From contig JBCCHT010000084.1 in the NCBI GenBank assembly GCA_039028615.1, positions 1 through 14,462 of the forward strand: DNA of 14,462 bases. The letters run 5' to 3'. Below are positions 68 through 14,462 of this stretch, one piece after another. Each line of letters starts with the position of its first letter. The stretch's first letter is position 1. The notes under the pieces were generated by a model that was not told where the DNA came from, did no database searches, and was given only the letters and a program-made list of their open reading frames with translations. The position numbers and the translations under genes are program-made. Source of the stretch: Myxococcota bacterium (GTDB lineage: Bacteria > Myxococcota_A > Polyangia > Nannocystales > Nannocystaceae).

Positions 68-853
68 ATGGTCTACGTCCCAACCTTCGAGGGAACCATT
101 GCGCAGTGGGCGAGCCTGCTCTTCGTGGTGACCTCGCCCCTGTTCTTCTTGGGGGAGGCGACGGGCTGGACGAGCTTCGGCTACTCGAAGTTCGCCAAGC
201 GTGAGCGACGATTCGCCTTGCCCTCCCGGCTGGGCATGCTGGTGATCTACGCGCCCGCCGTGGTGTTGGTGTGGCTGCCGCTCGTGCTGCGGGGCGTCGA
301 GATGACGCCATGGCACCTGCTGGTGGCCACGCTCATCAGCCTTCACTTCGGCAAGCGCTGCCTCGAGGTGCTGTTCGTGCACCGCTACTCGGGAGTGATG
401 AACCTCGGCAGCGTGCTGCTCATCTGCTCGCTGTACTCGTCGGTCTCGTTGTTGCTCGGCGAGGTCGCGGCCACCGAGGTCGGAGCTTCGGGCATGCCGA
501 CGGAGGGCTTCGAGCTTTGGCTGGGCATCGGCCTGGCGCTGTGGATCCTCGGCACGGTGGGGAACCTGCACCATCACCGCTTGCTCGCGGGGCTGCGCAC
601 GCCGGGAGAGTCGGGCTACAAGGTGCCGCGCGGCGGGTTGTTCGGCCTGGTCGCGACCCCGCACTACTTCCTGGAGGTGGTCGGGTGGTGGGGCTTCGCC
701 CTCGTCTTTCACCACGTGGCCGCGGCCTGCATCGTGTGGACGATGATGCTGTACCTGGCCGGCCGCGCCCACAACACCCGCAAGTGGTATCGCGAGCGCA
801 TGGCCGACCAGCTGCCGTCGGGGTGGAAGCGGATGATCCCGTTCGTCTACTGA
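68..853 (+). CDS. 3-oxo-5-alpha-steroid 4-dehydrogenase / steroid 5-alpha-reductase family membrane reductase (261 aa)
   Basis: Multi-pass hydrophobic protein with family motifs HFGKRCLEVLFVH, GNLHHHRLLAGLR, YKVPRGGLFGLVATPHYFLE, WYRE and terminal KRMIPFVY. Confidence 0.9.
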   Translation: MVYVPTFEGTIAQWASLLFVVTSPLFFLGEATGWTSFGYSKFAKRERRFALPSRLGMLVIYAPAVVLVWLPLVLRGVEMTPWHLLVATLISLHFGKRCLEVLFVHRYSGVMNLGSVLLICSLYSSVSLLLGEVAATEVGASGMPTEGFELWLGIGLALWILGTVGNLHHHRLLAGLRTPGESGYKVPRGGLFGLVATPHYFLEVVGWWGFALVFHHVAAACIVWTMMLYLAGRAHNTRKWYRERMADQLPSGWKRMIPFVY

Positions 854-865
854 GGGCGCCCATCG

Positions 866-2098
866 ATGAGCGACGTGCCCGAACTCGACCCCGCGCAGCG
901 TCGCGCGAGCCGACGGATCGTGGCGGCTCAGACCGCGAGCAAGCTCGGCGACGTGCTGGTCGACGCCAAGACGGTGCTCACCTGGCTGATGACTTCGGTG
1001 GGGGCTCCGGTCGCGCTGATCGGCGCGCTGGTGCCCATCCGCGAGAGCGGCTCGATGCTCCCCCAGCTGTGGCTCACCGAGGGGGTGCAACGCTTCGGTC
1101 GCCGCAAGTGGGCGTACTTCGCCGGAGCAGTGGGGCAGGCCTTGGCATGCATGGCGATGGCGCTCGCGTTCGTGCTGCCGTCGGGGATTCGCGCGGGGCT
1201 GGCGATCCTGGTCGCGCTCGGGGCCTTGGCACTGGCTCGGGCGCTCAGCTCCATCGCGAGCAAGGACGTCCTCGGGCGCACGGTGCCCAAGGGCGCGCGC
1301 GGTCGGGTCGGTGGCCTGTCGTCGGCGATCTCCGGGGTGCTGGGCGCGGGCGGATCGCTCGCGGCGATCTTCTGGATGCGCGGCGACGGTGAGGCGGCCA
1401 CCTACGCGGCGGTGGTGGCCATGGCCGCGGGCGCGTTCCTCACGGCGGGGCTCGCCTACGCGACGGTGGCCGAGCCCTACCACGAGCCCAAGCCATCGCC
1501 GGGGGGGTCGACCGCTCGCCTACGCATGTTGTGGGACGACCGATTGCTGCGGCGCTTCGTCATCGTCCGCGCGCTGTTGCTCGGCTCGGCGTTGGGAGGG
1601 CCCTTCTTCGTGTTGTTTGGGCAACAGAGCTCCGACAGGCTCTCGACCCTGGCCACCTTCGTGCTGGCAGCCGGGGCGGCCAAGGCCCTCAGCTCGCCGT
1701 GGTGGGGGACGCAGGCCGATCGCTCGGGGAGCCGCGCCATGGCGTGGGGTGGGGCGCTGGCGGGCCTCACCGCCGTCGTCGCGGTCGCCGTGCGCCAGGG
1801 CTTGGAGGGCCACGTGACCCCGAGCTACCTGTGGCCGGCGCTCTACTTCGTGTTCACCGTGGGCTACGTGGGCGTTCGCGTGGGGCGGAAGACGCACGTC
1901 GTGGACATGGCGGGCGGCGATCGACGCACCGCCTACGTGGCGGCGAGCAACACCGCCATCGCGATTGTCTTGCTCGCGTTCGGCGGGCTCGGGGCGGTGC
2001 TACAGGCCTGGTCCGACCTCGCCGCCCTCGGGCTGATGGGGAGCCTGACCCTCGTCGGAGCCGGGCTCGCCCTGCGCTTGCCCGGCACCGGAGACTGA
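866..2098 (+). CDS. MFS transporter (410 aa)
   Basis: Many hydrophobic segments in two halves, MFS-type loop motifs (QRFGRRKW; QADRSGSR). Starts 12 nt after the upstream stop, so probably co-transcribed. Confidence 0.85.
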   Translation: MSDVPELDPAQRRASRRIVAAQTASKLGDVLVDAKTVLTWLMTSVGAPVALIGALVPIRESGSMLPQLWLTEGVQRFGRRKWAYFAGAVGQALACMAMALAFVLPSGIRAGLAILVALGALALARALSSIASKDVLGRTVPKGARGRVGGLSSAISGVLGAGGSLAAIFWMRGDGEAATYAAVVAMAAGAFLTAGLAYATVAEPYHEPKPSPGGSTARLRMLWDDRLLRRFVIVRALLLGSALGGPFFVLFGQQSSDRLSTLATFVLAAGAAKALSSPWWGTQADRSGSRAMAWGGALAGLTAVVAVAVRQGLEGHVTPSYLWPALYFVFTVGYVGVRVGRKTHVVDMAGGDRRTAYVAASNTAIAIVLLAFGGLGAVLQAWSDLAALGLMGSLTLVGAGLALRLPGTGD

Positions 2099-5000
2099 GG
2101 CGCCCTCGCGCTGTGCGAGCCAGCGCTCGACCTCGGCTCGGTGGGCGTGCTCATAGGCGAGTCGATGCTCGTGAACCGCCCGCTTGGCTAGCGCGAGCGA
2201 GCGTTCCGACTCCCCCGTCGCGTCGAGGGCCTGGGCGAGGGCAAAGTGCGCGCGGGACCAATGCCGCGGACCGACCTCCCGGGCCTTGGCGATGCTCACG
2301 GCTCGTTGCGCGAGGCTGACGGCACGACCGGGGTTGCCCCGGGCCAGCGCGACCTCGGTCAGGCCGGCGAGGCTCGGGATCAGTGCCTCGTCCTGCAGCC
2401 CGATCACGCGCTCGGCCAGCGCGAGCGCTTCGCGGTGAGCCTCGCCGGCCCGTTCGACATCCGAGCGCTCCAGCAGCAGCACGCCGAGCTCGTCGAGCGA
2501 GCGGATCCGCTGGCGGTCGTTGTCGATCGGGGAGGCGTGGCGGCGCCCGAGCGCTTGCCGTCGCCACTGCACGGCGTCGTCGAGCCGCCCCATCGCGTGC
2601 AGGATGTCGGCCTTGCGCTCCATCGCCCGCAGCACATCGGGGTGCTCGGGCTCGAGGAAGCCTTCGAGGCCGGCGAGGGCTTCGTCGCATCGTTGGAGAG
2701 CGCGATCGAGCTCGCCCCGATGCATGTCGATGTCGGCGAGCTCGAGCAGGCCTTGGGCGACTGCCCGGTTGCGCTGCCCCGATGAGTCGAGGCGGATTCG
2801 GGCGGCGCGGGCTTGGCTTCGTTGCGCGGCCTCGATCCGCCCGAGGGCTAGCTGGGTCCGAAACATCCCCTCGAGCGTTCGCGAGATGCGGATGTGATCG
2901 GGACGAACCACGCGCTCGTACAGCGCCAGGCCCTGCTCTTGCAGGGCGAGCGCCTCCTCGACGTGCCCGAGCTCGAACAACGCTCGCCCTCGCTGCTCGT
3001 CGAGCTCACCGATGTAGGGATGCTCGGGCCCGACCGCATCGAGCCAGACATCGTGGGCACCGACGAACAGCGCCAGCGCCTCGCGGGGACGGCCCTGTGC
3101 CAAGTAAACCCGGCCCAGGTTGCGGACCGCGGCCGCCGTGATCGGGTGCTCGGCGCCGAGCGCTTCGGTGCGCAGCTCGACGGAACGCTCGCCTTGCCGG
3201 GCGGCCTCGGCGTAGTCGCCCAGCCCGAGGTAGACGTGCAGGAGCAGGTAGTGCTTCTCGGCGCGGTCGAGCCCGCTCGGGTCCGACAGCGAGGCGGACA
3301 GGCGCGTCGCGTGGCGGGCCCACAGCTCCGCCTCCCGGTAGCGGTGCAGGGGAGTGAGGGCCTGGATCAGCGAGTGGGCGGAGCGGAACGCCACCTCGAT
3401 CGAGCCGGCGTCCATGGCCTTGAAGTAGGCGTCGGTGAGCATCAGCTCGGCGGCGCGGAAGCGGCCGGTCATGACCAATCGACGCCCCACGATGAACTGG
3501 GCCTGAGCGAGCAGCGGCGGCCACCCCAGCGCGCGCGCGCGCGCCATCGCTCGCTCGCCGAGCTCGAGCCCTTCGTCGTAGCGACCGGCGTAGCTCAGCC
3601 CGTCGGACTCGCTGATCTCCATGCGAATGGAACGAATCTCCGCGCGCTGGTCCAGCGGAGGCACGGGGAGGTTGCGCAGCGACGCCGCTTCCAGGCAGGT
3701 CGAGACCGGGTCGAGGTACGACGCGATGCGAACGGCCCGGCGGGCGCCCTTGTCTCGGAGCGTGGCGATCTGATCGACGGTGACCTCGAGCTGGAGGCGG
3801 CGGTCGTCGAGGCACCACTGCGCCCGGTCGCGTCGGTCCCGGCTCCAGTCGGGCTCGATCGACGCGTGCACGCAGGCCTCGGTGCGGGCGGCGCTCCACT
3901 GGTCCCGGTAGGCGTCGAGCCGCTGAATGACCTTGTCCGCGTTGTCGGGGGCAAAACGAGCCCCGGTGGCGAGCAAGCCCTTGCGCACTCGCTCGCGCTC
4001 GTCGTCGTTCCAGACCTCGTCGATGCGGTCGCCTCGAGCCTCGCACTCGGCCTGCTGCGCGTGGGCCCGATGCCGTTGCTGCACGACGACGAGGCTCGCC
4101 ACCCCGGCCACGGTCACCGCCGTGCACAGGCCCGCCTGCCATCGCCAGCGCCGTCGGCCGCGCTCGAGGACGACGAGGAGCCTCGCCATCGATGCCCAAC
4201 GCGCGCGCGGTTTGGCGTCGAGCCCTCGCTGCAGCGCGCGGCGAAGCCATCGTGGCATGCGAGCGCTCTTCGGCGGGGGATGAATCTTGCCTTCCGCCGC
4301 GTTGGCGAAGGTCTCTGCCGTCGTTGCTCCGTCGAAGGGCCGCTGCCGACAGATGCCCTCCCACAGGCTGACGCAGAACGAGAACTGGTCCGCGGCGGGA
4401 GTCAGCTCGTTGGGCATGACCTGCTCGGGCGCCATATAGGCGGGCGTGCCGGCGAAGCGATCGACGGTGGCCTCGTCGAGCAGCGAGCTGCGGAGCGACT
4501 CGACCTCGGCCTCGACGTTCTCCGAGCTGGCGTCCTGGCTGGGACGCGCGAGCCCGAAGTCCATCACACGGACCTGGCCGTCGAACGAGACCATGACGTT
4601 GTCGGGCTTGAAGTCGCGATGGATCAGCTCGTGTTCATGGGCGGCCCGCAGCCCCTGGCCCGCGCCCAGGAACACCTCCAGCACCTCGCGCCACGATCGT
4701 GACCCGGCCCGTAGCCACTCGGTCAGCGTGGTGCCCTCGATGAACTCCATCGCGACGTAGACCGTGCCGTCGTGCTCGCCCGCATCGTGGACGGCGACCA
4801 CGTTCGGGTGCGTCAGCTTGGCCATCGCCTGGGCCTCGCGCAGCAGCGCCCGGCGGTTCTTGGCGCTCGTGTGTCCGCGCAGCAGCTTCAGCGCGACCCG
4901 ACGATCCAGCTCGGGATCGTAGGCCAGGTACACCACTCCCATGCCGCCCGCGCCGAGCTTGCGCAGCACGACGTAGCGCCCGATCTCGTCGCCCTTGGCC

Positions 5001-6444: not shown

Positions 6445-7383
6445 ATGGAAAATCTCGTCTCGTTTCCCTTCTCCGCCCGCGCTCCGAGTTCCCTCGCGGA
6501 GCCCGTCACCCAGCACTCTGCCGCCTGGGTGCGGGAACTCGGCTTGCTCGAGCAGCTCCCCAATCGGCAGCGCTACGAGATGCTGGCCATCGGTGACCTG
6601 GTCACGCGCACGCATCCGTCGTTTGCCCTGGCCGAGCTGCAGATCATCGCCAACTGGAGCCTGTGGCTGTTCGTCAACGACGACATCTACCAGCACCTGT
6701 CGCCCGACGAGCTGGGGGGATGGGTCGAGCGCTGCGTCGCGATCGTGGGCGGGCAGGACGTGCCCGCCGACACTCCCTTGCTGCGGGGGTTGGCCAGCCT
6801 GGTCGAGCAGACCTGGCCGCACGTGTCGGAGCGATGGCGCGAGCACTTCGCGGACAACCTGCGCGACCACCTGGCCTCGCTACAGTGGGAGACGGCCCTG
6901 GCGGTGGACGGTCGCTCACCGGACATAGCCACCTACCTCGACAAGCGCCAGTCCACGAGCGGCTTCAAGGCCTACGCCGACCTGCTGCACATCAGCCCCG
7001 GCTTCACCGTGCCCGACGACGTGCGCTTCAGCCCGCCCGTGCAGCGCATGGAGCTGATGATCAACAACATCGCCAGCTGGGCCAACGAGGTGCTCTCGTT
7101 CGACAAAGAGCGGGAGCAGGACGACCTGCTCACCAACATGGTGTGGGTCTACCACTGCGAGAAGGGCATCTCGGTCGAGGACGCCAAGGCCCAGGTCATC
7201 AGCCTTTGTCAGTCCGAGATCGACAACCTGCACTTCCAGATGACCCACTTGCCCGACTTCGGGGAAGACGTGGTGCCCAGCCTGCGGCACTACGTGTCGG
7301 TCTTGCAGGACCTGGTGGTGGGCACGTTCCAGTGGCACTTCGCGACGTCTAGGTATCGCCAGCACTGGAAGCCGTCGCAGTAG
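6445..7383 (+). CDS. Class I bacterial terpene synthase/cyclase family protein (312 aa), non-canonical metal-binding motifs
   Basis: Motifs in canonical order: WLFVNDDIYQ (DDxxD position), YLDKRQSTSG (diphosphate-sensor Arg), WANEVLSFDKE (NSE position), TNMVWV, WHFATSRY (WxxxxxRY). Confidence 0.88.
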   Translation: MENLVSFPFSARAPSSLAEPVTQHSAAWVRELGLLEQLPNRQRYEMLAIGDLVTRTHPSFALAELQIIANWSLWLFVNDDIYQHLSPDELGGWVERCVAIVGGQDVPADTPLLRGLASLVEQTWPHVSERWREHFADNLRDHLASLQWETALAVDGRSPDIATYLDKRQSTSGFKAYADLLHISPGFTVPDDVRFSPPVQRMELMINNIASWANEVLSFDKEREQDDLLTNMVWVYHCEKGISVEDAKAQVISLCQSEIDNLHFQMTHLPDFGEDVVPSLRHYVSVLQDLVVGTFQWHFATSRYRQHWKPSQ

Positions 7384-8374
7384 CAAGGACGGCCGTGGCA
7401 CTACGCGTGTGCATCGGGCATCCGACGGGGGTCGCCGTGGCGGGGCGAGCCGTGCGGTGCACGGGGCAGCCGACGCTGGGGCCGTGGCCCGCCTTCGTAC
7501 CGCGACGCTTGGCCATGGCGCGGAGGACCTTGGGCGGGCCCAGCTGCAGCGGCTCGTAGCCATCGGGGTAGGTCACGAGCTCGTGGAAGCGGCGAGCGTC
7601 GCGGTAGGGCCGACGCTGGTGGAGGTTGAAGCGCCGACGCAAGGCCCGGCGGGCTCGCATCACGCCGAGCACGGTCGTGCGGATGGGCCAGGCGGCGCGT
7701 TTCAGGCCCAACGCTCGCCGGAGGTCGTCGTCGATGACCGTCGCGATGATCGAAGGCACGAGCCAGTGCAAGGGCCGGGGCACGTCGGCGCACAGGCCCC
7801 GAATGGCCCCGCGCGTCACCGCTTCGTTGTCCGGGTGGTACCGCTGGCAGCGAGCCTCGTAGGCCTGCCGCCAGCGCTTCATCGCATCGTAGGTCTCCGG
7901 GATGTCGGTGATGCCCATGCGACTGCCGAGCTGGATCCCGAAGTTGTGCAGGGCTCGGCGCTCTCGCTCGCGGAGCTGGCGGTGCCCGAAGCGGACCAAC
8001 CAGAAGTCGAGATCCATGTACAGCGTGGTGAGCGTGTACAGGTTGTCGTCGTTGGTGATCGGGTAAAACGAGTGGATCTCGTTGAGGTGCTCGATCATCG
8101 CGCCGACCTCGGGCTTGTCGAAGCCTCCGAACAGCTCGAGCCCGATGCCGAGGGTGTCGTCCAGCCGCTTGCGGCTGTCGTCCTCGTACTGCCGCGTGCC
8201 GTGCAGGACCCGCGAGATGCTCGGGATCCCGAACGTGGTCAGCTGACCGAGCTCGACCGAGTGCAGGTAGTCCTCGGTGAACACGTGGTCGAACAGGATG
8301 CGAACGATGGTCGCCGCGTCTTCATCCGGGTCCAGAGCATCGATGCGTGCCTCCCAGGTCTCGGTTCTCCACAT
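7349..8374 (-). CDS. MpaB / DUF2236 (Lcp-like) heme oxygenase family protein (341 aa)
   Basis: TFGIPSISRVLHGT, KRLDDT, HLNEIHSFYPITNDDNLYTL, GSRMGITDIPETY and YPDGY motifs typical of the family. ATG 8374 has GAGG 6 nt upstream. ORF-track start 8476 would overlap the LysR start. Confidence 0.85.
   Translation of the reverse strand: MWRTETWEARIDALDPDEDAATIVRILFDHVFTEDYLHSVELGQLTTFGIPSISRVLHGTRQYEDDSRKRLDDTLGIGLELFGGFDKPEVGAMIEHLNEIHSFYPITNDDNLYTLTTLYMDLDFWLVRFGHRQLRERERRALHNFGIQLGSRMGITDIPETYDAMKRWRQAYEARCQRYHPDNEAVTRGAIRGLCADVPRPLHWLVPSIIATVIDDDLRRALGLKRAAWPIRTTVLGVMRARRALRRRFNLHQRRPYRDARRFHELVTYPDGYEPLQLGPPKVLRAMAKRRGTKAGHGPSVGCPVHRTARPATATPVGCPMHTRSATAVLATATASSAGDT
7409..7474 (-). repeat. 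Imperfect 18-nt direct repeat (7409-7426, 7457-7474) encoding VGCPMH and VGCPVH
   Basis: GTGCATCGGGCATCCGAC vs GTGCACGGGGCAGCCGAC on the + strand, 15/18 identical, 48 nt apart. Confidence 0.75.
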
Positions 8375-8384
8375 ATCGGCCTCG

Positions 8385-8466
8385 GGTCCATCTTTGGCTA
8401 CGAAAGGGTGATTGAAAATGGACCAAGATGATCCGATAGGTGTTACAAAAGCGTCCATCTCATGGA
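8385..8466. promoter_or_regulatory. Divergent promoter region with candidate LysR sites
   Basis: TCCAT-CTC-ATGGA at 8454-8466 is a T-N11-A dyad overlapping the LysR ATG. GGTCCAT 8385-8391 and ATGGACC 8418-8424 form an inverted pair. GTCCATCT occurs at 8386-8393 and 8453-8460. Confidence 0.55.
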
Positions 8467-9328
8467 TCTCGACCAAACCCGGGCGCTACTGGCCGTCGCG
8501 GCGACCGGCAGCATCAGCGGGGCCGCGACCGAGCTGGGGGTCGCCCGACCCACGATTCGGCGCCGGTTGGCCGCGCTCGAGCAGGCGCTCGGTACGGCGG
8601 TGGCGGTGGCGGACGAGAGCGGGGTGACGCTGACCGAGGCGGGACGGCTGTACGCAGAGCACGGCGCGGCCCTGGTGCGTGACCACGATGCCCTACACGA
8701 GCTCATCACCCAGAACAGCGACGAGCCGCGGGGGCTCATCGACGTGGCGTTGCCGATCGGCGCGGCGGGCCCGCTCGCGCCCGCGTTCCTGCGGCTGGCG
8801 CTGCACCGCTGGCCCAAGCTCCGCTATCGCATTCGCTCCACCGTCGACCCGGTGGCGGAGATCTATCGGGGCGCCGACGCGGCGCTGACGATGTCGTTGC
8901 CCCAGACGGGTGACCTGGTGGTGCGCTCGCTGGGCCGCTTTCGCACCGGGCTCTACGCCAGCCAGGCCTATATCGACCGCGAGGGCACACCGCGGACGAG
9001 CGCCGCGCTGGTCGAGCACACCCTGCTGCATGCGCTGGTCGAAGGCGCGCCGCCGATCGCCTGGCCGTTGATGTCCGGGGGCACGCTGGCGGTGGAGCCC
9101 AAGGTCATCGCCTCGGACGCAGAGTTCATCCGCACGTGTGTGCACGACGGCGATGGCATCGGGCTGCTACCCAAGTTTGCCGCGGTGGGCCTCGTGCCCG
9201 TGCTGCCCACCGTGGTCGGCACGCTACAGCCGCTGTGGTCGGTCACGACCCGAGCGGGTGCGGCGATGCCCCGGTTGCAGCAGCTGCTCGACGCGAGCCT
9301 CGAGTTCTTGGCCCCGGTCATGCGCTGA
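8462..9328 (+). CDS. LysR-family transcriptional regulator (288 aa)
   Basis: N-terminal HTH GSISGAATELGVARPTIRRRLAALEQALG...LTEAG, linker EPRG, effector domain LYASQAYI...GTP and GDGIGLLP. Divergent from the oxygenase. Confidence 0.92.
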   Translation: MDLDQTRALLAVAATGSISGAATELGVARPTIRRRLAALEQALGTAVAVADESGVTLTEAGRLYAEHGAALVRDHDALHELITQNSDEPRGLIDVALPIGAAGPLAPAFLRLALHRWPKLRYRIRSTVDPVAEIYRGADAALTMSLPQTGDLVVRSLGRFRTGLYASQAYIDREGTPRTSAALVEHTLLHALVEGAPPIAWPLMSGGTLAVEPKVIASDAEFIRTCVHDGDGIGLLPKFAAVGLVPVLPTVVGTLQPLWSVTTRAGAAMPRLQQLLDASLEFLAPVMR

Positions 9329-9445
9329 CGACCGACGTGACGGTGTCGCGGAAACCCGGACGGTTGCTCTAGCCGTTCGGGCGTCGCGGTTCGGACCTCG
9401 GCGACGGAAGCGCGGCCGATCGCGGTGTGCCCGAGCCTACGCCGG

Positions 9446-9486
9446 GTTTCGTCGCCAATCGTGCCATTCGCCGACGTTTCGTCACC
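9446..9486. repeat. 11-nt direct repeat GTTTCGTC(G/A)CC, 30 nt apart, upstream of the copper monooxygenase
   Basis: GTTTCGTCGCC 9446-9456 and GTTTCGTCACC 9476-9486. Inverted imperfect copy GGCGACGGAAG at 9400-9410. Confidence 0.5.
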
Positions 9487-9521
9487 TCGTGATCGCTTGT
9501 GCTGCGGCGGACCGCCGCGAT

Positions 9522-10982
9522 ATGAACAGTGCTGTGACATGGTCTAAGCGGAGTGCGGTGGGGTTGGCGAGCGCGGCGATGCTCGGGTTGACGCTGGGTG
9601 CGTGTGGCGAGGAGGCCCCGGCCGAGAGCCCCGAGGGCGGCACCGCCAGCACGGGCGACGTCGCGACGTCAGACGACACCGACGGCGAGTCCGAGAGCAC
9701 GGGCGAGGGGCAGGCCGAGCCGCCCCCGACCTGGTATCAGGACATCGCGCCGCTGGTCGTCGGCAAGTGTGCGGGCTGCCATGCGACCGGCGGCATCGCA
9801 CCCGTGGAGCTCGGCGACTACGAGTCGGCGCGACCGCTCGCGACGCTGGTGGCCGACTCGGTCGAGGCGGGCAACATGCCGCCCTTCGCCGCGGCGGAGA
9901 CCGACGAGTGCCAGATGCAGCACGGTCTCAAGGACGACCTGCGGCTGAGCGACGAGGACAAGGCCTTGCTGCGGGCGTGGGCCGAGGCGGGCGCACCCGA
10001 GGGTGATCCCAACGATCCCGCGCCCGTGCCCGAGCCGCCGTCGGTCGAGCTGACCACGGTGGACACCCAGCTGCAGATTCAGTCCGGCGTCACCATCGAC
10101 GGGGCCAACGACCAGTTCTTCTGCTTCAGCGTCGACCCCGAGCTGACCGAGGACACCTACCTGCAGGCGATGCAGGTCGTGCCCGGCAACGAGAAGATCG
10201 TCCACCACGTGCTCATCTACGTGGATCCCGACGGCAGCTCGGCCGAGGCGGCCGGCGAAGACGGCTACTACCCGTGCAGCGGTGGCGGGGCCCAGGGCGA
10301 CCTCATCGGCGCATGGGCTCCGGGCGCGCTGCCCATCCAAACGCCGCCCGACGTCGGCTTCGAGGTCCCCGCCGGCTCGCGGCTGGTGATGAACATTCAC
10401 TATCACCCCAACGGGGTGGCCGAGGTCGACGACTCCACCCGGATCGAGATCGACTGGATGGACGAGCGGCCGGCCAACGTCGCGCAGCTCCAGCTCATCG
10501 GCAACGGCCAGGGCCTGCTGTCGGGCCCCAACGACGACGGCGGCCCGGAGTTCTTGATCCCCGCCGGGGTCTCGGATCACACCGAGTCCATGCTCGTCAC
10601 CCTGCCGTCGGAGATTCCCGAGCTTCGGCTGTGGTCCATCGGTTCCCACATGCACTACGTGGGCGTCGACATGATCATCGGGGTCGCGCGCGAGAACAGC
10701 TCCGGCCCCGACGAAGAGTGCCTGCTGCACACGCCGACGTATAGCTTCGAGTGGCAGCGCAGCTACGAGTACGATCGCGAGCTCGACGACCTGCCCCGGC
10801 TCGCGGGCGGCGACAAGTTGTTCATGCGTTGCACCTACGACAACACCATGAACAACCCGGGGGTGGTCGAGGCGCTGGGGCAGCTGGGCCTCGACGAGCC
10901 CATCGACGTGCAACTGGGCGAAGAGACCCTCGACGAGATGTGCCTGGGCATCTACGGGCTCATCATCCCGAACATCTTCTGA
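9522..10982 (+). CDS. Lipoprotein: monoheme cytochrome c domain fused to copper type II (PHM/DBH-like) monooxygenase (486 aa)
   Basis: LGAC lipobox (Cys28), acidic Ser/Thr linker, CAGCH heme motif with downstream MPP. Copper ligand motifs VHHVLIY, IHYHP, SHMH and DEMC. The start could alternatively be GTG 9534. Confidence 0.85.
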   Translation: MNSAVTWSKRSAVGLASAAMLGLTLGACGEEAPAESPEGGTASTGDVATSDDTDGESESTGEGQAEPPPTWYQDIAPLVVGKCAGCHATGGIAPVELGDYESARPLATLVADSVEAGNMPPFAAAETDECQMQHGLKDDLRLSDEDKALLRAWAEAGAPEGDPNDPAPVPEPPSVELTTVDTQLQIQSGVTIDGANDQFFCFSVDPELTEDTYLQAMQVVPGNEKIVHHVLIYVDPDGSSAEAAGEDGYYPCSGGGAQGDLIGAWAPGALPIQTPPDVGFEVPAGSRLVMNIHYHPNGVAEVDDSTRIEIDWMDERPANVAQLQLIGNGQGLLSGPNDDGGPEFLIPAGVSDHTESMLVTLPSEIPELRLWSIGSHMHYVGVDMIIGVARENSSGPDEECLLHTPTYSFEWQRSYEYDRELDDLPRLAGGDKLFMRCTYDNTMNNPGVVEALGQLGLDEPIDVQLGEETLDEMCLGIYGLIIPNIF

Positions 10983-11008: not shown

Positions 11009-11872
11009 TCAGCGCTCGAGGGCCGAGTTCGCGACCGAGATCAATCGCCCCAGGGTCTGCCGTCCGCCGAGGACGAGCAGCCCTCCGCGATACCAGGGGA
11101 TGCGCGTGACCACGATGGCGGTGCCGGCCGTGTCGGCCACGACGCAGCGCGGCTCACCATCGTGGCGAGTCACCCGATTGGCGACGAGCCGGTGCAGCCC
11201 CGCCGTACACAGGCCGAGCAGATCGAGCGTGGCCCGCTCTTCGCCCGTGGTGGGATGAAGCAGCGTGCCCTCCTCCTCCTCGATGACGCAGGCGACCTCG
11301 AGGCTCGGGAGTCGCTGCCGACACTGCTGCACCAGCGCTTCGAGCCGGGCTCGGGCATCGGGGCTGGGCGGGGTGGGGCGCACCATCAGCTCGGCGAGGC
11401 TGAAGGTGAACGCGTGGTCGTAGCGGTAGAGCCATCCGCTGGTCTCGGCCGTGACCGGGCCCGCCCAGGTCAGCAGCTCCCACAGCTGGTCGGAGATGTG
11501 GCGGAACAGGCAGCTGCGTAGCTCGGCGGGCTGCACGAGTCCCAGCGCCACCAGGCCCTCGCCGAAGCGCAGCCCCGAGTCGCGGCAGTGGGCGATCGCC
11601 CGGCCGAGGGACGCCTGGGAGAGACCGAGCTCCCGCTTCATGACCGCGCCGAGGTGCTCGGGATGGTCGTCGACGCGGATCCAGGCCACCGTGCCGTCGT
11701 AGAGGCAGCAGCGCGCCTGGGATTGGCCTCGGAACAGGACCTCGCCGTTGAATCGCGCCGCGAGGAGTCCTTGAAGCAGGGGCTCGGCCTCCTCGATCGA
11801 GGCCAGTGTGCGTGCTGCTTCGCTGCGCTCGGGCCCGCCTCCGTACACGAGGCGAAGCTTGGGCACGCTCAT
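11009..11872 (-). CDS. DUF4388-like protein with MshEN-like tandem motif and C-terminal Roadblock-like domain (287 aa)
   Basis: ATG 11872 overlaps the upstream TGA (ATGA) and has GAGG 7 nt upstream. FNGEVLFRG...LYDGTVAW then HLGAVM...RFGEGLVALGLV pattern. The C-terminus LEALVQQCRQRLPSLEVACVIEEEEGTLL...LGRLISVA parallels the upstream Roadblock proteins. CDS well supported, domain names less so. Confidence 0.65.
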   Translation of the reverse strand: MSVPKLRLVYGGGPERSEAARTLASIEEAEPLLQGLLAARFNGEVLFRGQSQARCCLYDGTVAWIRVDDHPEHLGAVMKRELGLSQASLGRAIAHCRDSGLRFGEGLVALGLVQPAELRSCLFRHISDQLWELLTWAGPVTAETSGWLYRYDHAFTFSLAELMVRPTPPSPDARARLEALVQQCRQRLPSLEVACVIEEEEGTLLHPTTGEERATLDLLGLCTAGLHRLVANRVTRHDGEPRCVVADTAGTAIVVTRIPWYRGGLLVLGGRQTLGRLISVANSALER

Positions 11873-13005
11873 CGGTGGGCCTCGAGCTGGTGGACGAGCG
11901 CCGCCTGCTGTGGGGTCTGGATGGACCCGGGCGCGTTGGCCCGAACGCGGGCGATCGCCTCGTCCGCGGACATGCCCAGGCAGACGCCCACGCCCGCGAC
12001 GATGGTGCCCGTGCGCCCGAGGCCTGCCCGGCAGTGCACGGCGACGACCTGGCCCCGATCCATCGCGCGTACGAGGTCGTGGCACAGGGCGATGGCATCG
12101 GCGAGCGAAGGGATGCCCATGTCGCGGATGGGGAAGTGGCGGCCCGCGATCCCGAAGGGGCGCAGGCGCGAGGAGGGGAGAGGGTCTTCGGTGAGGCTCA
12201 CCAGCAGAGTGACGCCGGCATGGGCGATCGAGAACAGGTCGTCGTCGAGATCTCGAAAGAGCCCGGGCATGCCCATGCCGGCGAGATGGCCCTCGCGAAA
12301 CCAGTGAAAATGGCTCGGGCACGAGGGCAGAGCGGGCTGTTGGGCGCAGGTCCCGTAGCGGAGAAACTGCCGGACCAGGGCGCGCTGCGGCTGCTCGAAG
12401 AACTCGGAGGCCGAGCAATGGGTGATGAGCTCGCCGTCGCACAGCAGACACACATGGTCGGAGGCGCGCTGGGTGAACTCGAGATCGTGAGAAACGAAGA
12501 CCACCGTGCCGCGGTCGACATGGTCGTGAAATCGCCGCAGGAGGTCCTCGCGGTCTTCGGGGGGCATGCCTCGGGTGGGCTCGTCGAGCAAGACGACCTC
12601 GGCCCCGCAGAAGAATGCGCCATCGATCCTCGCGCGGACCATGGCGACGCGCTTCGGGTCCGAGAACGGGCCTGCGGGGGCATGGGGGATCTGGGGCACC
12701 CACGCGACCTGACCGAGCGGGGCGCCTCCGCGGGCGAGGGGACTCATGGGGCGCCCGCGGAAGCGCCAGCACCCGCTGGCCTGCCACCCCTCGGAAGGGG
12801 CGCGGCCGCTGAGCAAGCGCAGCAGGGTGCTCTTGCCGCTACCCACCGGGCCGACCACGGCCGTCACCTGGCGATGGGGCAGCGCCAGGTCGAGCGGTCC
12901 GAGGACATGACCCAGCGGGCCCTCGATGCCGACTCGCTGCAGCTCGAAGAGCGGAGGAGCCGGCGGTGGCTCAGAGGGCACGCTCGATGTCGTCGATCTG
13001 TCCAC
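11869..13005 (-). CDS. ABC-type ATPase domain fused to dual-specificity/tyrosine phosphatase (CX5R) domain (370-378 aa)
   Basis: Walker A GPVGSGKST, Q-loop WVPQ, Walker B VVLLDEP, H-loop VSHD. Phosphatase motifs FHWFREGHLAGMGMPG, HFPIRDMGIP, VHCRAGLGRTG and SIQTPQQ. Start is GTG 13005 or GTG 12981, and both overlap the upstream gene's end. Confidence 0.9.
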   Translation of the reverse strand: MDRSTTSSVPSEPPPAPPLFELQRVGIEGPLGHVLGPLDLALPHRQVTAVVGPVGSGKSTLLRLLSGRAPSEGWQASGCWRFRGRPMSPLARGGAPLGQVAWVPQIPHAPAGPFSDPKRVAMVRARIDGAFFCGAEVVLLDEPTRGMPPEDREDLLRRFHDHVDRGTVVFVSHDLEFTQRASDHVCLLCDGELITHCSASEFFEQPQRALVRQFLRYGTCAQQPALPSCPSHFHWFREGHLAGMGMPGLFRDLDDDLFSIAHAGVTLLVSLTEDPLPSSRLRPFGIAGRHFPIRDMGIPSLADAIALCHDLVRAMDRGQVVAVHCRAGLGRTGTIVAGVGVCLGMSADEAIARVRANAPGSIQTPQQAALVHQLEAHR

Positions 13006-13375
13006 GAGCCTTGACCATCACCATGCCCAGGTTGGCCTTCTTGCGGCAGACCACGACGACCACCATGTTCGAGTGCCGTTTGCAGCGTTGAAACAGGTGG
13101 AGGAGGTTCTCGGAGAAAATGACTATTTCTCGAAAGTAGTGAAGATCGGGGTCGTTGATCCCACGAATGCGTTTGAATGTGTCTTCGATGGCAGTGACGT
13201 TTTCTCCTTGAAACAATTCTCCAGTGGCGGCCGCGACCAGGTCGAGGACGTCCTGAGGGTGGCTGTCGACGGTGCGGACGGCCAGCAGCATGCCGCTGGT
13301 GATGTCCACGACGCCAGCTGCGACACACTCTGGAACTGTACGTTGTAGGGTCCTGAGGGGGTTGTCTAGGCTCAT
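12971..13375 (-). CDS. Roadblock/LAMTOR2-like domain protein, paralog A (134 aa)
   Basis: ATG 13375 with GGGAG SD at 13383-13387. Pattern LRTLQRTVPECVAAGVVDITSGMLL...FREIVIFSENLLHLFQR...VVVVVCRKKANLGMV fits the helix-2 strands-helix-3 strands-helix Roadblock layout. Confidence 0.78.
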   Translation of the reverse strand: MSLDNPLRTLQRTVPECVAAGVVDITSGMLLAVRTVDSHPQDVLDLVAAATGELFQGENVTAIEDTFKRIRGINDPDLHYFREIVIFSENLLHLFQRCKRHSNMVVVVVCRKKANLGMVMVKARGQIDDIERAL

Positions 13376-13477
13376 TTGGGGGCTCCCGCGATGCTCTGCG
13401 CAACTGTGCGTTCGTGTCTCGGCGGCAGGTGTGCGCAGTCCTGCTACCGTTGAGAAACGGCACGAAGATTCAGTCGC

Positions 13478-13511
13478 TCGAGCCCAATGGCACATTGCCG
13501 TTGGGGCTCGA
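13478..13511. repeat. Inverted repeat / stem-loop in the leader of Roadblock paralog A
   Basis: TCGAGCCCAATGGCA-CAT-TGCCGTTGGGGCTCGA has about 15 paired positions, with one bulge and one non-Watson-Crick pair. Confidence 0.7.
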
Positions 13512-13540
13512 ACCTATGCTGTTTTCAATCGACGTCGAGG

Positions 13541-13569
13541 AGTATCAGTCAGCGCGTTCACGAGAGCAA
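13541..13569 (-). promoter_or_regulatory. Candidate sigma70-type promoter TTGCTC-N17-GATACT for the Roadblock A / ABC-phosphatase / DUF4388-like operon
   Basis: On the minus strand, TTGCTC (13569-13564), an exact 17-nt spacer, then GATACT (13546-13541). An alternative -10, TAGGTT, lies at 13516-13511. Confidence 0.4.
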
Positions 13570-13590
13570 CTGTTTGTAGGGGAAACACTC
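13564..13590. promoter_or_regulatory. Shared upstream motif, copy 1 (upstream of Roadblock A)
   Basis: GAGCA-ACTG-TTTGTAGGGGAAACACTC matches copy 2 at 14402-14428 at 20/27 positions without gaps. Confidence 0.6.
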
Positions 13591-13872
13591 CGTCCTTTTG
13601 TTGGCCATGCGTTCCAATGTCGAAGCGTCGAAGTGTGAACATGCGGGCTTTCGCGCGGCCGCCCGTGGCCATTTCGAAATCGGGTTCAAAGGGGCCTGGT
13701 GCTTTCGTGCTAGTCCGACGTGGGCCGTCCTTTTCTGGAGAGGGTGACACCAAGGCGCGGCCAAGAGAAAACGCGCGCCGTTTTGAAGCGACGCGCGTCG
13801 TCGAGGAGGCAATGACCCGCGAGCGAAGTGCGGGCTCGAGACGGAGCCGCCCGAGCACGCGATGCACAGCGC

Positions 13873-14274
13873 TCAGACCAGCGTGTCGATCGTTTCGGCT
13901 GCCTCGCGAGCCTTGGTCCTCACGACGTCCAGATCGGCGTCCTTGTGACAGATGATGACCACCACCAGTTGCTCGAGCCGCGGGCAGCGTTGAAAAACGA
14001 GTAGGCGGTCGGCTGAAACCATGACGATCTCTCTGCAATACTCGTGTTGGTAGTAGTTCCGGTACCCGCGCTCGAAGGCCCTCTGGAAGGCGGTGATGCC
14101 GGTACTCGCGAGCAGGTCTTGGGTACTGGAACCGAGCGTGTCGAGGATGTCTTGCGGCAGGTCTTCGTCGCAGAGGACGGACATCATCGCCCCGGTGGTG
14201 GTGTCGACGACGCCAGCGGCAATGCACTTCGGGGCGTCTTTCTTGAGCGTAGTGAGAGCGGGTTGTAGATCCAC
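13873..14274 (-). CDS. Roadblock/LAMTOR2-like domain protein, paralog B (133 aa)
   Basis: Aligns end to end with paralog A (CIAAGVVD, PQDILD, REIV, FQRC, KAR), roughly 40% identity by manual count. GTG 14274 chosen because it aligns with the paralog A start. ATG 14355 is the alternative. Confidence 0.75.
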   Translation of the reverse strand: MDLQPALTTLKKDAPKCIAAGVVDTTTGAMMSVLCDEDLPQDILDTLGSSTQDLLASTGITAFQRAFERGYRNYYQHEYCREIVMVSADRLLVFQRCPRLEQLVVVIICHKDADLDVVRTKAREAAETIDTLV

Positions 14275-14401
14275 GGGAGGAGTTCCGATGATGGTGTACG
14301 CGCGTCGTTGTGGTCGATGAATTTGCGCGGCGTTCGATCGACCAGGCTTGCCCATAACATATCGCCAACGGGGAGCCGAGCGGACGCGGCCGTCGATCGA
14401 C

Positions 14402-14428
14402 GAGCAGACCTTTGTGGGGGGAACTCTC
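14402..14428. promoter_or_regulatory. Shared upstream motif, copy 2 (upstream of Roadblock B)
   Basis: GAGCA-GACC-TTTGTGGGGGGAACTCTC, same orientation relative to its gene as copy 1. Confidence 0.6.
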
Positions 14429-14462
14429 GGCCAAACGAAACGCGCGTCGCTCGAGAGCGACG

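Follow-up and report, generated by a model that had tools for sequence, protein, structure and literature searches.

Roadblock proteins are regulators of Ras-like GTPases, as exemplified by MglB and Ragulator, and of dynein. We analysed a group of four genes in which Roadblock-like proteins accompany a fusion between an ABC-type ATPase domain and a cysteine phosphatase domain. These genes occupy positions 11009-14274 of a stretch of 14,462 nucleotides (nt), hereafter the window, which is the complete contig JBCCHT010000084.1 (C84) of a Nannocystaceae bacterium of the phylum Myxococcota (assembly GCA_039028615.1; 12.3 Mb, 96.7% complete). Judging from gene neighbourhoods, the conserved core of this module is the ABC-phosphatase fusion together with one of the Roadblock proteins, Roadblock A. 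Such a tie between a widespread, highly conserved Roadblock subfamily and an ABC-derived domain, if true, would extend Roadblocks to a second class of NTPases.

The nearest described counterpart is the MglA-MglB(-MglC) polarity switch of Myxococcus xanthus and Thermus thermophilus (structures 6hjm, 6izw, 3t1r and 7ct3; PMC6785124), in which MglB is the GTPase-activating protein (GAP) of MglA. Roadblock A shares the MglB fold in its predicted model, and the relatives of the window operon likewise include an MglA-like GTPase. However, Roadblock A is only 14-20% identical to MglB, has an extra helix and matches no Pfam family, and the constant partner in our loci is the ABC-phosphatase fusion, with no GTPase at the window locus.

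The survey of Wuichet and Sogaard-Andersen (2014, PMC4316618) reports PATAN genes near Group 1 and Group 5 MglA, MglB homologues beside PATAN, and the Group 3 operon; it excluded GTPases of over 240 amino acids (aa), and thus, for example, a GTPase-kinase fusion. Its section 18 names no ABC-phosphatase fusion, and three supplement files (file 1 being outside the search) contain no occurrence of phosphatase, DSPc or ABC_tran. Two unstudied M. xanthus PATAN proteins are mentioned in PMC11580455. A literature search returned no description of the fusion module; two surveys that may mention the fusion, on the rhodanese-phosphatase superfamily and on ABC classification, were outside this search, so that the term "undescribed", used in a preliminary description of this DNA, is provisional.

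The ABC-phosphatase fusion and Roadblock A

The four genes of the window are listed below in their order of reading.

13873-14274, minus strand: Roadblock B, open reading frame (ORF) of 133 aa with a GTG start
12971-13375, minus strand: Roadblock A, ORF of 134 aa, with GGAG about 10 nt ahead of the ATG
11869-13005, minus strand: ABC-phosphatase fusion, ORF of 378 aa
11009-11872, minus strand: PATAN-Roadblock (DUF4388-like) gene, ORF of 287 aa, a lineage-specific accessory

All four ORFs lie on the minus strand; as the preliminary description had stated, they are co-oriented and the last three overlap. The fusion starts 35 nt inside the Roadblock A gene (11 nt if it begins at the alternative GTG at 12981, which yields 370 aa and corresponds to the database call P0001), and the fusion runs into the PATAN gene through an ATGA stop/start junction at 11869-11872. 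We also recovered the motifs of the P-loop NTPase and the CX5R phosphatase announced there, GPVGSGKS and HCRAGLGRT, and a Pfam scan of the window likewise found no ABC permease or small GTPase. The four proteins have zero predicted transmembrane (TM) segments.

The fusion scores 39 bits with the Pfam model ABC_tran, 53 bits with PTP-SAK and 57 bits with Tc-R-P; its phosphatase domain lies above the cut-off of the last two models and below that of DSPc, and its nearest solved relatives by profile are the Protein Data Bank (PDB) entry 25xa, with an E-value of 2.6e-42, and human DUSP23, with one of 5e-30. Homologues of the fusion numbered 149 at E<=1e-30. Its elements are as follows.

12829-12852, minus strand: Walker A motif GPVGSGKS (K58), from the sequence
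12586-12690, minus strand: 35-residue remnant between the Q-loop Q105 and the Walker B D141, which replaces a helical subdomain of about 79 residues
12580-12585, minus strand: Walker B Asp-Glu (D141 and catalytic E142), from the sequence alignment
12487-12489, minus strand: H-switch histidine H173
12121-12123, minus strand: putative general-acid Asp D295 (IRDMG), aligned with the Asp of 25xa
12010-12036, minus strand: phosphatase P-loop HCRAGLGRT (C325, R331), from the sequence

The initial ABC-ATPase call thus stands for the Walker A, Q-loop, Walker B and H-switch, whereas the signature and most of the helical subdomain are gone, a loss that the preliminary description had overlooked. No LSGGQ signature occurs in the remnant between Q105 and D141, which is the least conserved region of the protein (22% identity to the window protein among 84 short-form homologues; see below), and a proline stands at the D-loop Asp position (DEPTRGMP).

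Our set of loci numbered 122 and comprised the window, L007, L008 and L057-L175; in 109 of them one ORF encodes both domains. Seven fusions cut at a contig start, L067 (GKP in Walker A), L131 (length filter) and five further near-duplicates were dropped, leaving a non-redundant set of 95 fusions, for which the Walker A Lys and the CX5R motif were filter criteria and hence are not evidence of conservation. The Q-loop Gln, the Walker B Asp, the Walker B Glu, the H-switch His and the phosphatase acid Asp are each present in 95/95. In contrast, S-x-G in the signature window is found in 7/95 fusions, as compared to 56/57 other ABC domains of this genome, and the D-loop Asp in 20/95, as compared again to 56/57. 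As read from these alignments, the motifs acting across an ABC dimer are lost while the in-cis catalytic residues are kept, which suggests that hydrolysis persists without the canonical dimer.

Two forms of the fusion occur. The 73 long forms have 72-80 residues from Q-loop to Walker B and a degenerate signature; the 22 short forms have 21-51 residues there, with 36 in the window protein. A FastTree phylogeny of 330 columns, each with less than 10% gaps, places 21 of the 22 short forms in one clade (support 0.983), L147 lying elsewhere, and the window groups in a subclade with L057, L137, L138 and L139 (support 0.958). Most of the helical subdomain is deleted in the myxobacterial clade of the window. 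A cruder motif rule classed as short 89 of the 120 listed protein matches (three of them being misread long forms) and left 16 incomplete.

These features bear on the possibility, which we find extremely improbable, that the ABC domain powers transport through a permease encoded elsewhere. The best NCBIfam matches of the domain are indeed importer ATPases such as PstB, all far under cut-off (67 versus 343 bits), but the signature, the D-loop Asp and the helical subdomain are all missing. Moreover, no permease or other membrane-protein family recurs in the neighbour clusters of the fusions, and a same-strand ORF with at least four predicted TM segments lies within 2.5 kb in only 6/55 loci. Taking motifs and neighbours together, we conclude that the ABC domain of the fusion is not a transporter subunit.

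Roadblock A is a predicted member of a highly conserved Roadblock subfamily of about 134 aa. Its AlphaFold2 model, built from a 46-sequence alignment, has the Roadblock fold, with a predicted local distance difference test (pLDDT) score of 91.6 (only 52 when folded from the single sequence). The model superposes on M. xanthus MglB 6hjm with a Z score of 16.0 and a root-mean-square deviation of 2.0 A over 117 residues, matches 3kye in Foldseek (E 6e-9) and places the extra helix at residues 58-71, so that the fold first proposed for this small protein is borne out by prediction. Roadblock A matches no Pfam (including PF03259) or NCBIfam model, and it fits 41/41 conserved columns of its family. 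Over 86 loci, mean pairwise identity is 60% for the Roadblock A family, versus 38% for the ABC core and 43% for the phosphatase, and several hydroxyl residues are near-invariant (Ser88 86/86, Tyr80 85/86, Thr51 83/86 and Ser38 82/86). The count of three Roadblock-like domains in the module also holds, for Roadblock A by its model, for Roadblock B by its 40% identity to Roadblock A, and for the PATAN protein by a template-modelling (TM-score) value of 0.85 at its C-terminus; PF03259 matches none of the three.

The following lines of evidence support the association of Roadblock A with the fusion. First, among the 54 loci with at least 3 kb of flank on each side (search reach, 6.5 kb), a survey of the kind suggested at the outset found the Roadblock A family near the fusion in 52/54, and within 600 nt of it in 43/54. 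Second, 26/54 loci combine the Roadblock A family with a GTPase and 26/54 have it without a detected GTPase. Third, in 15/54 loci, which are Group 3 MglA systems, a long-form fusion lies inside the operon (winged helix-turn-helix (wHTH) protein, MglA and canonical Roadblock), and 15/15 of these carry the Roadblock A family plus the separate canonical Roadblock, which occurs in 0/39 of the other loci. As the Group 3 loci hold both Roadblock types, the Roadblock A family follows the fusion rather than the GTPase. An adjacent GTPase, a possibility raised earlier, does not account for the Roadblock A family, given the loci without a detected GTPase and those where the GTPase has its own Roadblock. 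Fourth, six split loci (L145, L146, L148, L222, L229 and L230) encode the Roadblock, an ABC-only and a phosphatase-only protein as separate genes with the order kept, and L223 has the Roadblock and the ABC gene with the phosphatase absent. The core idea of the preliminary description thus withstands its own refuting conditions on co-occurrence, fold and adjacent GTPase, although control of the ATPase by the Roadblock is only a proposal. The four-gene make-up, by contrast, is local and did not survive as a unit: the PATAN partner was seen in only 14/54 loci, and among 86 family copies Roadblock B finds no orthologue that exceeds 40% identity. Three other loci, L057, L138 and L139, show the window order Roadblock A-fusion-PATAN; L138 and L139, with flanks of at least 7 kb, are also without a GTPase.

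Natural fusions of the Roadblock A family were sought among 34 matches of at least 190 aa from 150 listed representatives. They join it to phosphatase (three: P0205, P0300 and P0306) and MglA-like GTPase domains (two: P0212 and P0215), as well as to PATAN/receiver domains and Ser/Thr kinase domains (P0241, P0256 and P0331), with the caveat that some may be gene-calling read-throughs. Such proteins are relevant to the proposal that Roadblock A is a phosphorylated hub on which the phosphatase acts (as does the kinase-like domain of fuller operons, described below), and not a regulator of the ABC domain. The fusions to phosphatase and Ser/Thr kinase domains speak for this proposal, as do the near-invariant Ser88, Tyr80, Thr51 and Ser38 and the fact that Roadblock A is more conserved than either enzyme domain. 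However, the conserved hydroxyls may be structural, Roadblock distances track those of the ABC core slightly better than those of the phosphatase (partial r 0.24 versus 0.09, a weak difference between non-independent pairs), and L223 retains the Roadblock and the ABC gene without the phosphatase. Overall, we regard a hub role as quite unlikely.

Several observations were made on the neighbours and distant relatives of the core. A protein combining 2Fe-2S ferredoxin, FAD-NAD reductase and truncated globin regions lies beside long-form fusions in 23/44 well-flanked loci (e.g., L102:3801-5384 and L071:9431-11056) and might provide an oxygen or redox input to the cysteine phosphatase. A protein of about 370 aa without Pfam match adjoins the module in 9/54 well-flanked loci (e.g., L110:8761-9945, L147:9277-10521 and L145:9385-10467, minus strand), and no homologue of it was found in this genome. 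The Roadblock A family is also carried by the cultured species Bradymonas sediminis and Persicimonas caeni. On the Ralstonia solanacearum megaplasmid CP015851.1 (L232:4649-6402), the gene for a Roadblock A homologue with 52% identity comes after one for a 436-aa "ABC transporter-like protein", with mobile-element genes on either side, and eight Ralstonia records match. The ABC-only match L231, which lies among Mla-type permease and MCE-like genes, was rejected as a family member.

Accessory genes and the GTPase-kinase-like partner

The PATAN protein scores 17 bits with PF14332, under the gathering cut-off of 25, and 28/30 of its close homologues match this model at E<=0.1 (best, 5.8e-6). Its ESM Atlas feature matches are PatA_N clusters (0.84-0.86), to be taken as leads only, and 29 homologues share 45-55% identity with it. 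Two further regions were delimited.

11012-11371, minus strand: C-terminal Roadblock-fold domain, residues 168-287, from an ESM Atlas structure search
11498-11656, minus strand: degenerate MshEN-like tandem motif (24+5+24), residues 73-125, 21.9 bits with NF053729 (cut-off 38)

The C-terminal domain resembles a Robl_LC7 cluster of the ESM Atlas over 117 residues (the TM-score value given above), and its hhalign alignment to the Roadblock A family spans 110 columns with an E-value of 0.015 and a probability of only 2.9%. The second region, which lies inside the PATAN domain, recalls the MshEN receptor of cyclic di-GMP (c-di-GMP), which, in the account that PMC5013675 gives of the motif, consists of two 24-residue motifs joined by five residues. 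The PATAN protein shares this spacing (residues 73-96 and 102-125), the Leu/Gly scaffold and the equivalent of Arg38. Unlike MshEN, it is under the NCBIfam cut-off and has His73, Cys96 and His125 in place of the ligand positions Arg9, Gln32 and Gln61 throughout its 30-member family, which makes c-di-GMP binding doubtful. Elsewhere in this genome, C21:2675-6081 is a separate receiver-PATAN-like/Roadblock/PAS-like histidine kinase locus, similar to the genes that precede the module in L139, L062 and L144.

Roadblock B is 40% identical to Roadblock A, which is also its best identity among the 86 family copies. It scores 145.6 bits with the Roadblock A family profile (209.5 for Roadblock A), keeps 20/41 conserved columns and has a terminal branch of 1.16, versus 0.14 for Roadblock A; the two genes share 72% DNA identity across 89 nt, and their third-position GC (0.71 and 0.78) is lower than that of the fusion and PATAN genes (0.86 and 0.88). 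From these comparisons, Roadblock B is a fast-evolving diverged duplicate outside the conserved core. A gap of 497 nt separates it from Roadblock A and contains the following feature.

13770-13799, minus strand: terminator-like hairpin of 11 pairs followed by TTTCTCTT, 74 nt after Roadblock B

Such hairpins are within chance (3 found versus 1.8 +/- 1.5 expected; z -1.4), and with this gap a single four-gene transcript is only a possibility. An Rfam search of 13376-14462 gave one match (E 0.6), which is not credible, and no sigma-70 promoter was found.

In the short-form clade and its sister clade, a frequent gene order is Roadblock-PATAN-extended GTPase-(metallophosphoesterase)-fusion, the C-terminal domain of the extended GTPase being present in seven of the 22 short-form loci (L007, L059, L061, L062, L063, L150 and L151). 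Its motifs (Gly-rich, C-x-K-T, LDVHPSNF and Y-x-D-D) occur in 9/12 aligned copies, which were chosen partly for these motifs, and 6/17 listed entries showed the motif. Its structural matches in the ESM Atlas are AceK, RIO, APH and Kdo kinases (TM-score 0.52-0.58). The motifs, and predicted models with a TM-score near 0.55, point to a kinase-like domain. MglA-like GTPases with this domain and intact-looking motifs are encoded at L007:5705-7744, L061:4538-6214, L062:4270-6249, L092:9062-10708 and L165:5362-6930 (minus strand), the last two loci also having paralogues without the motifs (L092:1607-3193 and L165:12580-14169). A profile of the kinase-like domain was positive in 5/401 genomes of the phylum and matched nothing in this genome or in five relatives (G001, G002, G014, G016 and G017). 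No GTPase-kinase gene lies in cis in the window subclade. A metallophosphoesterase gene of this genome, C62:15284, was considered as a displaced member of the operon and rejected (32-36% identity to the operon type, among unrelated genes).

This genome carries canonical mglBA after recR (C18:79114-80340), which helps to identify the host as a myxobacterium, and a second MglA-like gene (C47:39498-40349), no other being found. The Roadblocks might serve an MglA-type GTPase, in cis in the relatives and in trans here through the host MglA or the second MglA-like protein, with the ABC-phosphatase as a downstream or co-located effector. The GTPase-containing half of the well-flanked loci fits this explanation, and so do the GTPase-Roadblock fusions P0212 and P0215, the loci L215 and L216, which keep two Roadblocks around a GTPase-kinase gene without the fusion, and MglB as the closest structure to Roadblock A. 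On the other hand, an equal number of loci have the Roadblock without a detected GTPase (flanks being guaranteed to 3 kb only), each of the 15 Group 3 loci comes with a canonical Roadblock besides, and the host MglA has its own MglB. Finally, the extended GTPase was not found in this nearly complete genome, although only 188 nt of contig remain upstream of Roadblock B, which leaves an unassembled neighbour possible. Since the window is a whole contig, the sequence past 14462 is unreadable; none of the other contigs of the genome overlaps this end, and a public-run contig stops close to it, at 14446. We judge service to a GTPase to be unlikely, though deserving of consideration.

Another view is that the window copy is a decaying remnant of a larger operon, with no current function. 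In its favour, the operon has lost its GTPase-kinase and phosphoesterase genes, relatives contain scattered pieces of the module, an internal stop interrupts one PATAN copy, the branch of Roadblock B is long, and the GC content is about 60% at the contig end (12971-14462) versus 68% genome-wide. However, none of the three core ORFs is broken and their starts and stops overlap, their order is repeated in three relatives, 7/29 PATAN homologues are tied, indirectly, to records with a fusion homologue, and Roadblock A fits every conserved column of its family. A remnant without function is thus very unlikely.

The remainder of the window holds a steroid 5-alpha-reductase-like gene (68-853, plus strand) followed by a major facilitator superfamily (MFS) transporter gene (866-2098, plus strand), a gene for a Ser/Thr kinase-TPR protein (2000-4975, minus strand) and a terpene synthase gene (Terpene_syn_C_2, E 1e-34; 6445-7383, plus strand). 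The latter runs towards, and overlaps, an ORF that no Pfam model matches (7349-8476, minus strand), itself divergent from a LysR regulator gene (8462-9328). The gene at 9264-10982 (plus strand), whose product resembles copper type II ascorbate-dependent monooxygenases and includes a cytochrome c-like stretch, ends 26 nt from the PATAN gene stop.

Possible function of the module

Considering the motifs and neighbours described above, we see an even chance that the module is a DUSP23-like phosphatase that ATP gates and Roadblock dimers organise; it would be the "eraser" arm that remains of a GTPase-kinase operon. The module would be a soluble cytoplasmic signalling complex, in which the stripped ABC domain, through its nucleotide state (ATP binding and hydrolysis), would control the phosphatase joined to it. 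Roadblock A dimers would hold and regulate the complex as its obligatory partner, and the PATAN-Roadblock protein may be a lineage-specific input or localisation subunit, possibly acting through Roadblock heterodimers. Where the myxobacterial operon is fuller, the role of the phosphatase would be to remove the marks written by the MglA-like GTPase-kinase-like fusion; as the window subclade lost the GTPase-kinase gene, its phosphatase would have the targets of host kinases as substrates. This genome has at least 150 Pkinase matches (150 of 419 candidates scored). We infer from sequence that both domains are active, that ATP does the gating, that the proteins bind one another and that the substrates are phosphoproteins.

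Several points weigh against this proposal. The Roadblock A family occurs without the fusion in L212, L215, L216, L226, L227 and L228, which makes the partnership one-way and not exclusive to the ABC domain. A distant member (36% identity) on the Ruegeria plasmid NZ_CP081107.1 (L233:2136-10677) lies among four dynamin-family genes and adjoins a Ser/Thr kinase gene. No fusion of the Roadblock A family to an ABC domain was seen among the 34 long matches examined, and a GTPase is nearby in 26/54 loci; with MglA-type GTPases in half of the loci, the module belongs to the MglA/PATAN world. The GTPase extension has no Pfam or PDB sequence match. The distribution is patchy, the Roadblock A family being found in 21/73 genomes of the taxonomic family and 3/5 of the genus; a close PATAN profile matches 13/73 genomes of that family, and the one-piece full-length fusion occurs in 20/401 sampled genomes of the phylum, its own included. 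Lastly, the substrate could be a small molecule.

This last point amounts to an explanation in which the phosphatase targets a small molecule or a nucleic-acid end (in stress, repair or conflict) rather than proteins. It agrees with the best Pfam models of the domain, Tc-R-P (a polymorphic toxin system family) and PTP-SAK, with the UniRef label of Marinobacter members ("phosphatase domain-containing putative toxin"), with the linked kinase-like domain, which resembles APH and Kdo kinases as much as protein kinases, with the frequent metallophosphoesterase and ferredoxin-reductase-globin neighbours and with the patchy distribution. We hold it to be improbable, given that signalling proteins make up the recurring neighbours (MglA, Roadblock, PATAN, receiver and histidine kinase), that DUSP23 is the closest named phosphatase structure and that the neighbour clusters show no repeated gene for secretion, immunity or nuclease functions.

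By analogy with MglB-MglA, a bolder possibility, on balance unlikely, is that the ABC ATPase, after losing the signature, the D-loop Asp and the entire helical subdomain, was rebuilt as a monomeric G-protein-like switch, with a dedicated Roadblock dimer supplying the lacking catalytic push as its GAP and the nucleotide state toggling the DUSP23-like phosphatase, in opposition to the MglA-gated kinase of fuller operons. If this were true, it would be a bacterial circuit pairing an NTPase-kinase and an NTPase-phosphatase on one Roadblock scaffold. In any case, the short form represents a minimal ABC domain of natural origin which, in keeping the in-cis residues without the signature, can show whether ABC hydrolysis works without the canonical sandwich dimer. 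To our knowledge, myxobacteria have hundreds of Ser/Thr kinases and few characterised phosphatases, so that a nucleotide-gated phosphatase would be a candidate control point.

Comparison with known systems

Beyond MglA-MglB, the module can be compared with the actinobacterial conservon (CvnA-D), with which it shares the combination of a Roadblock, a phosphoryl-transfer enzyme and an NTPase in a compact operon. However, the window genes include no histidine kinase, CvnC or small GTPase (CvnD); their NTPase is ABC-derived and their enzyme is a cysteine phosphatase. At the domain level, DUSP23 (4erc and 2img) and the dual-specificity phosphatase (DSP) 25xa align with the whole phosphatase domain, including the Cys, the Arg and the acid Asp, but are stand-alone chains of 150-162 aa, whereas the window domain is fused to an ATPase. 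Similarly, the ABC importer ATPases PstB and DppD have the Walker A, Q-loop, Walker B and H-switch in the same order, and differ from the fusion, which is without the signature, the D-loop Asp, the helical subdomain and a permease. As for the Group 3 systems, their components (receiver-like/wHTH protein, Group 3 MglA and canonical MglB) are absent from the window and found in 0/22 short-form loci.

Together, these comparisons depict a module that is real, conserved and apparently an unstudied variant of the Roadblock/MglA/PATAN operons with an ABC-derived component. What the window adds to this picture is the form without the helical subdomain in a three-gene arrangement without a GTPase, which is also the smallest kit for experiments.

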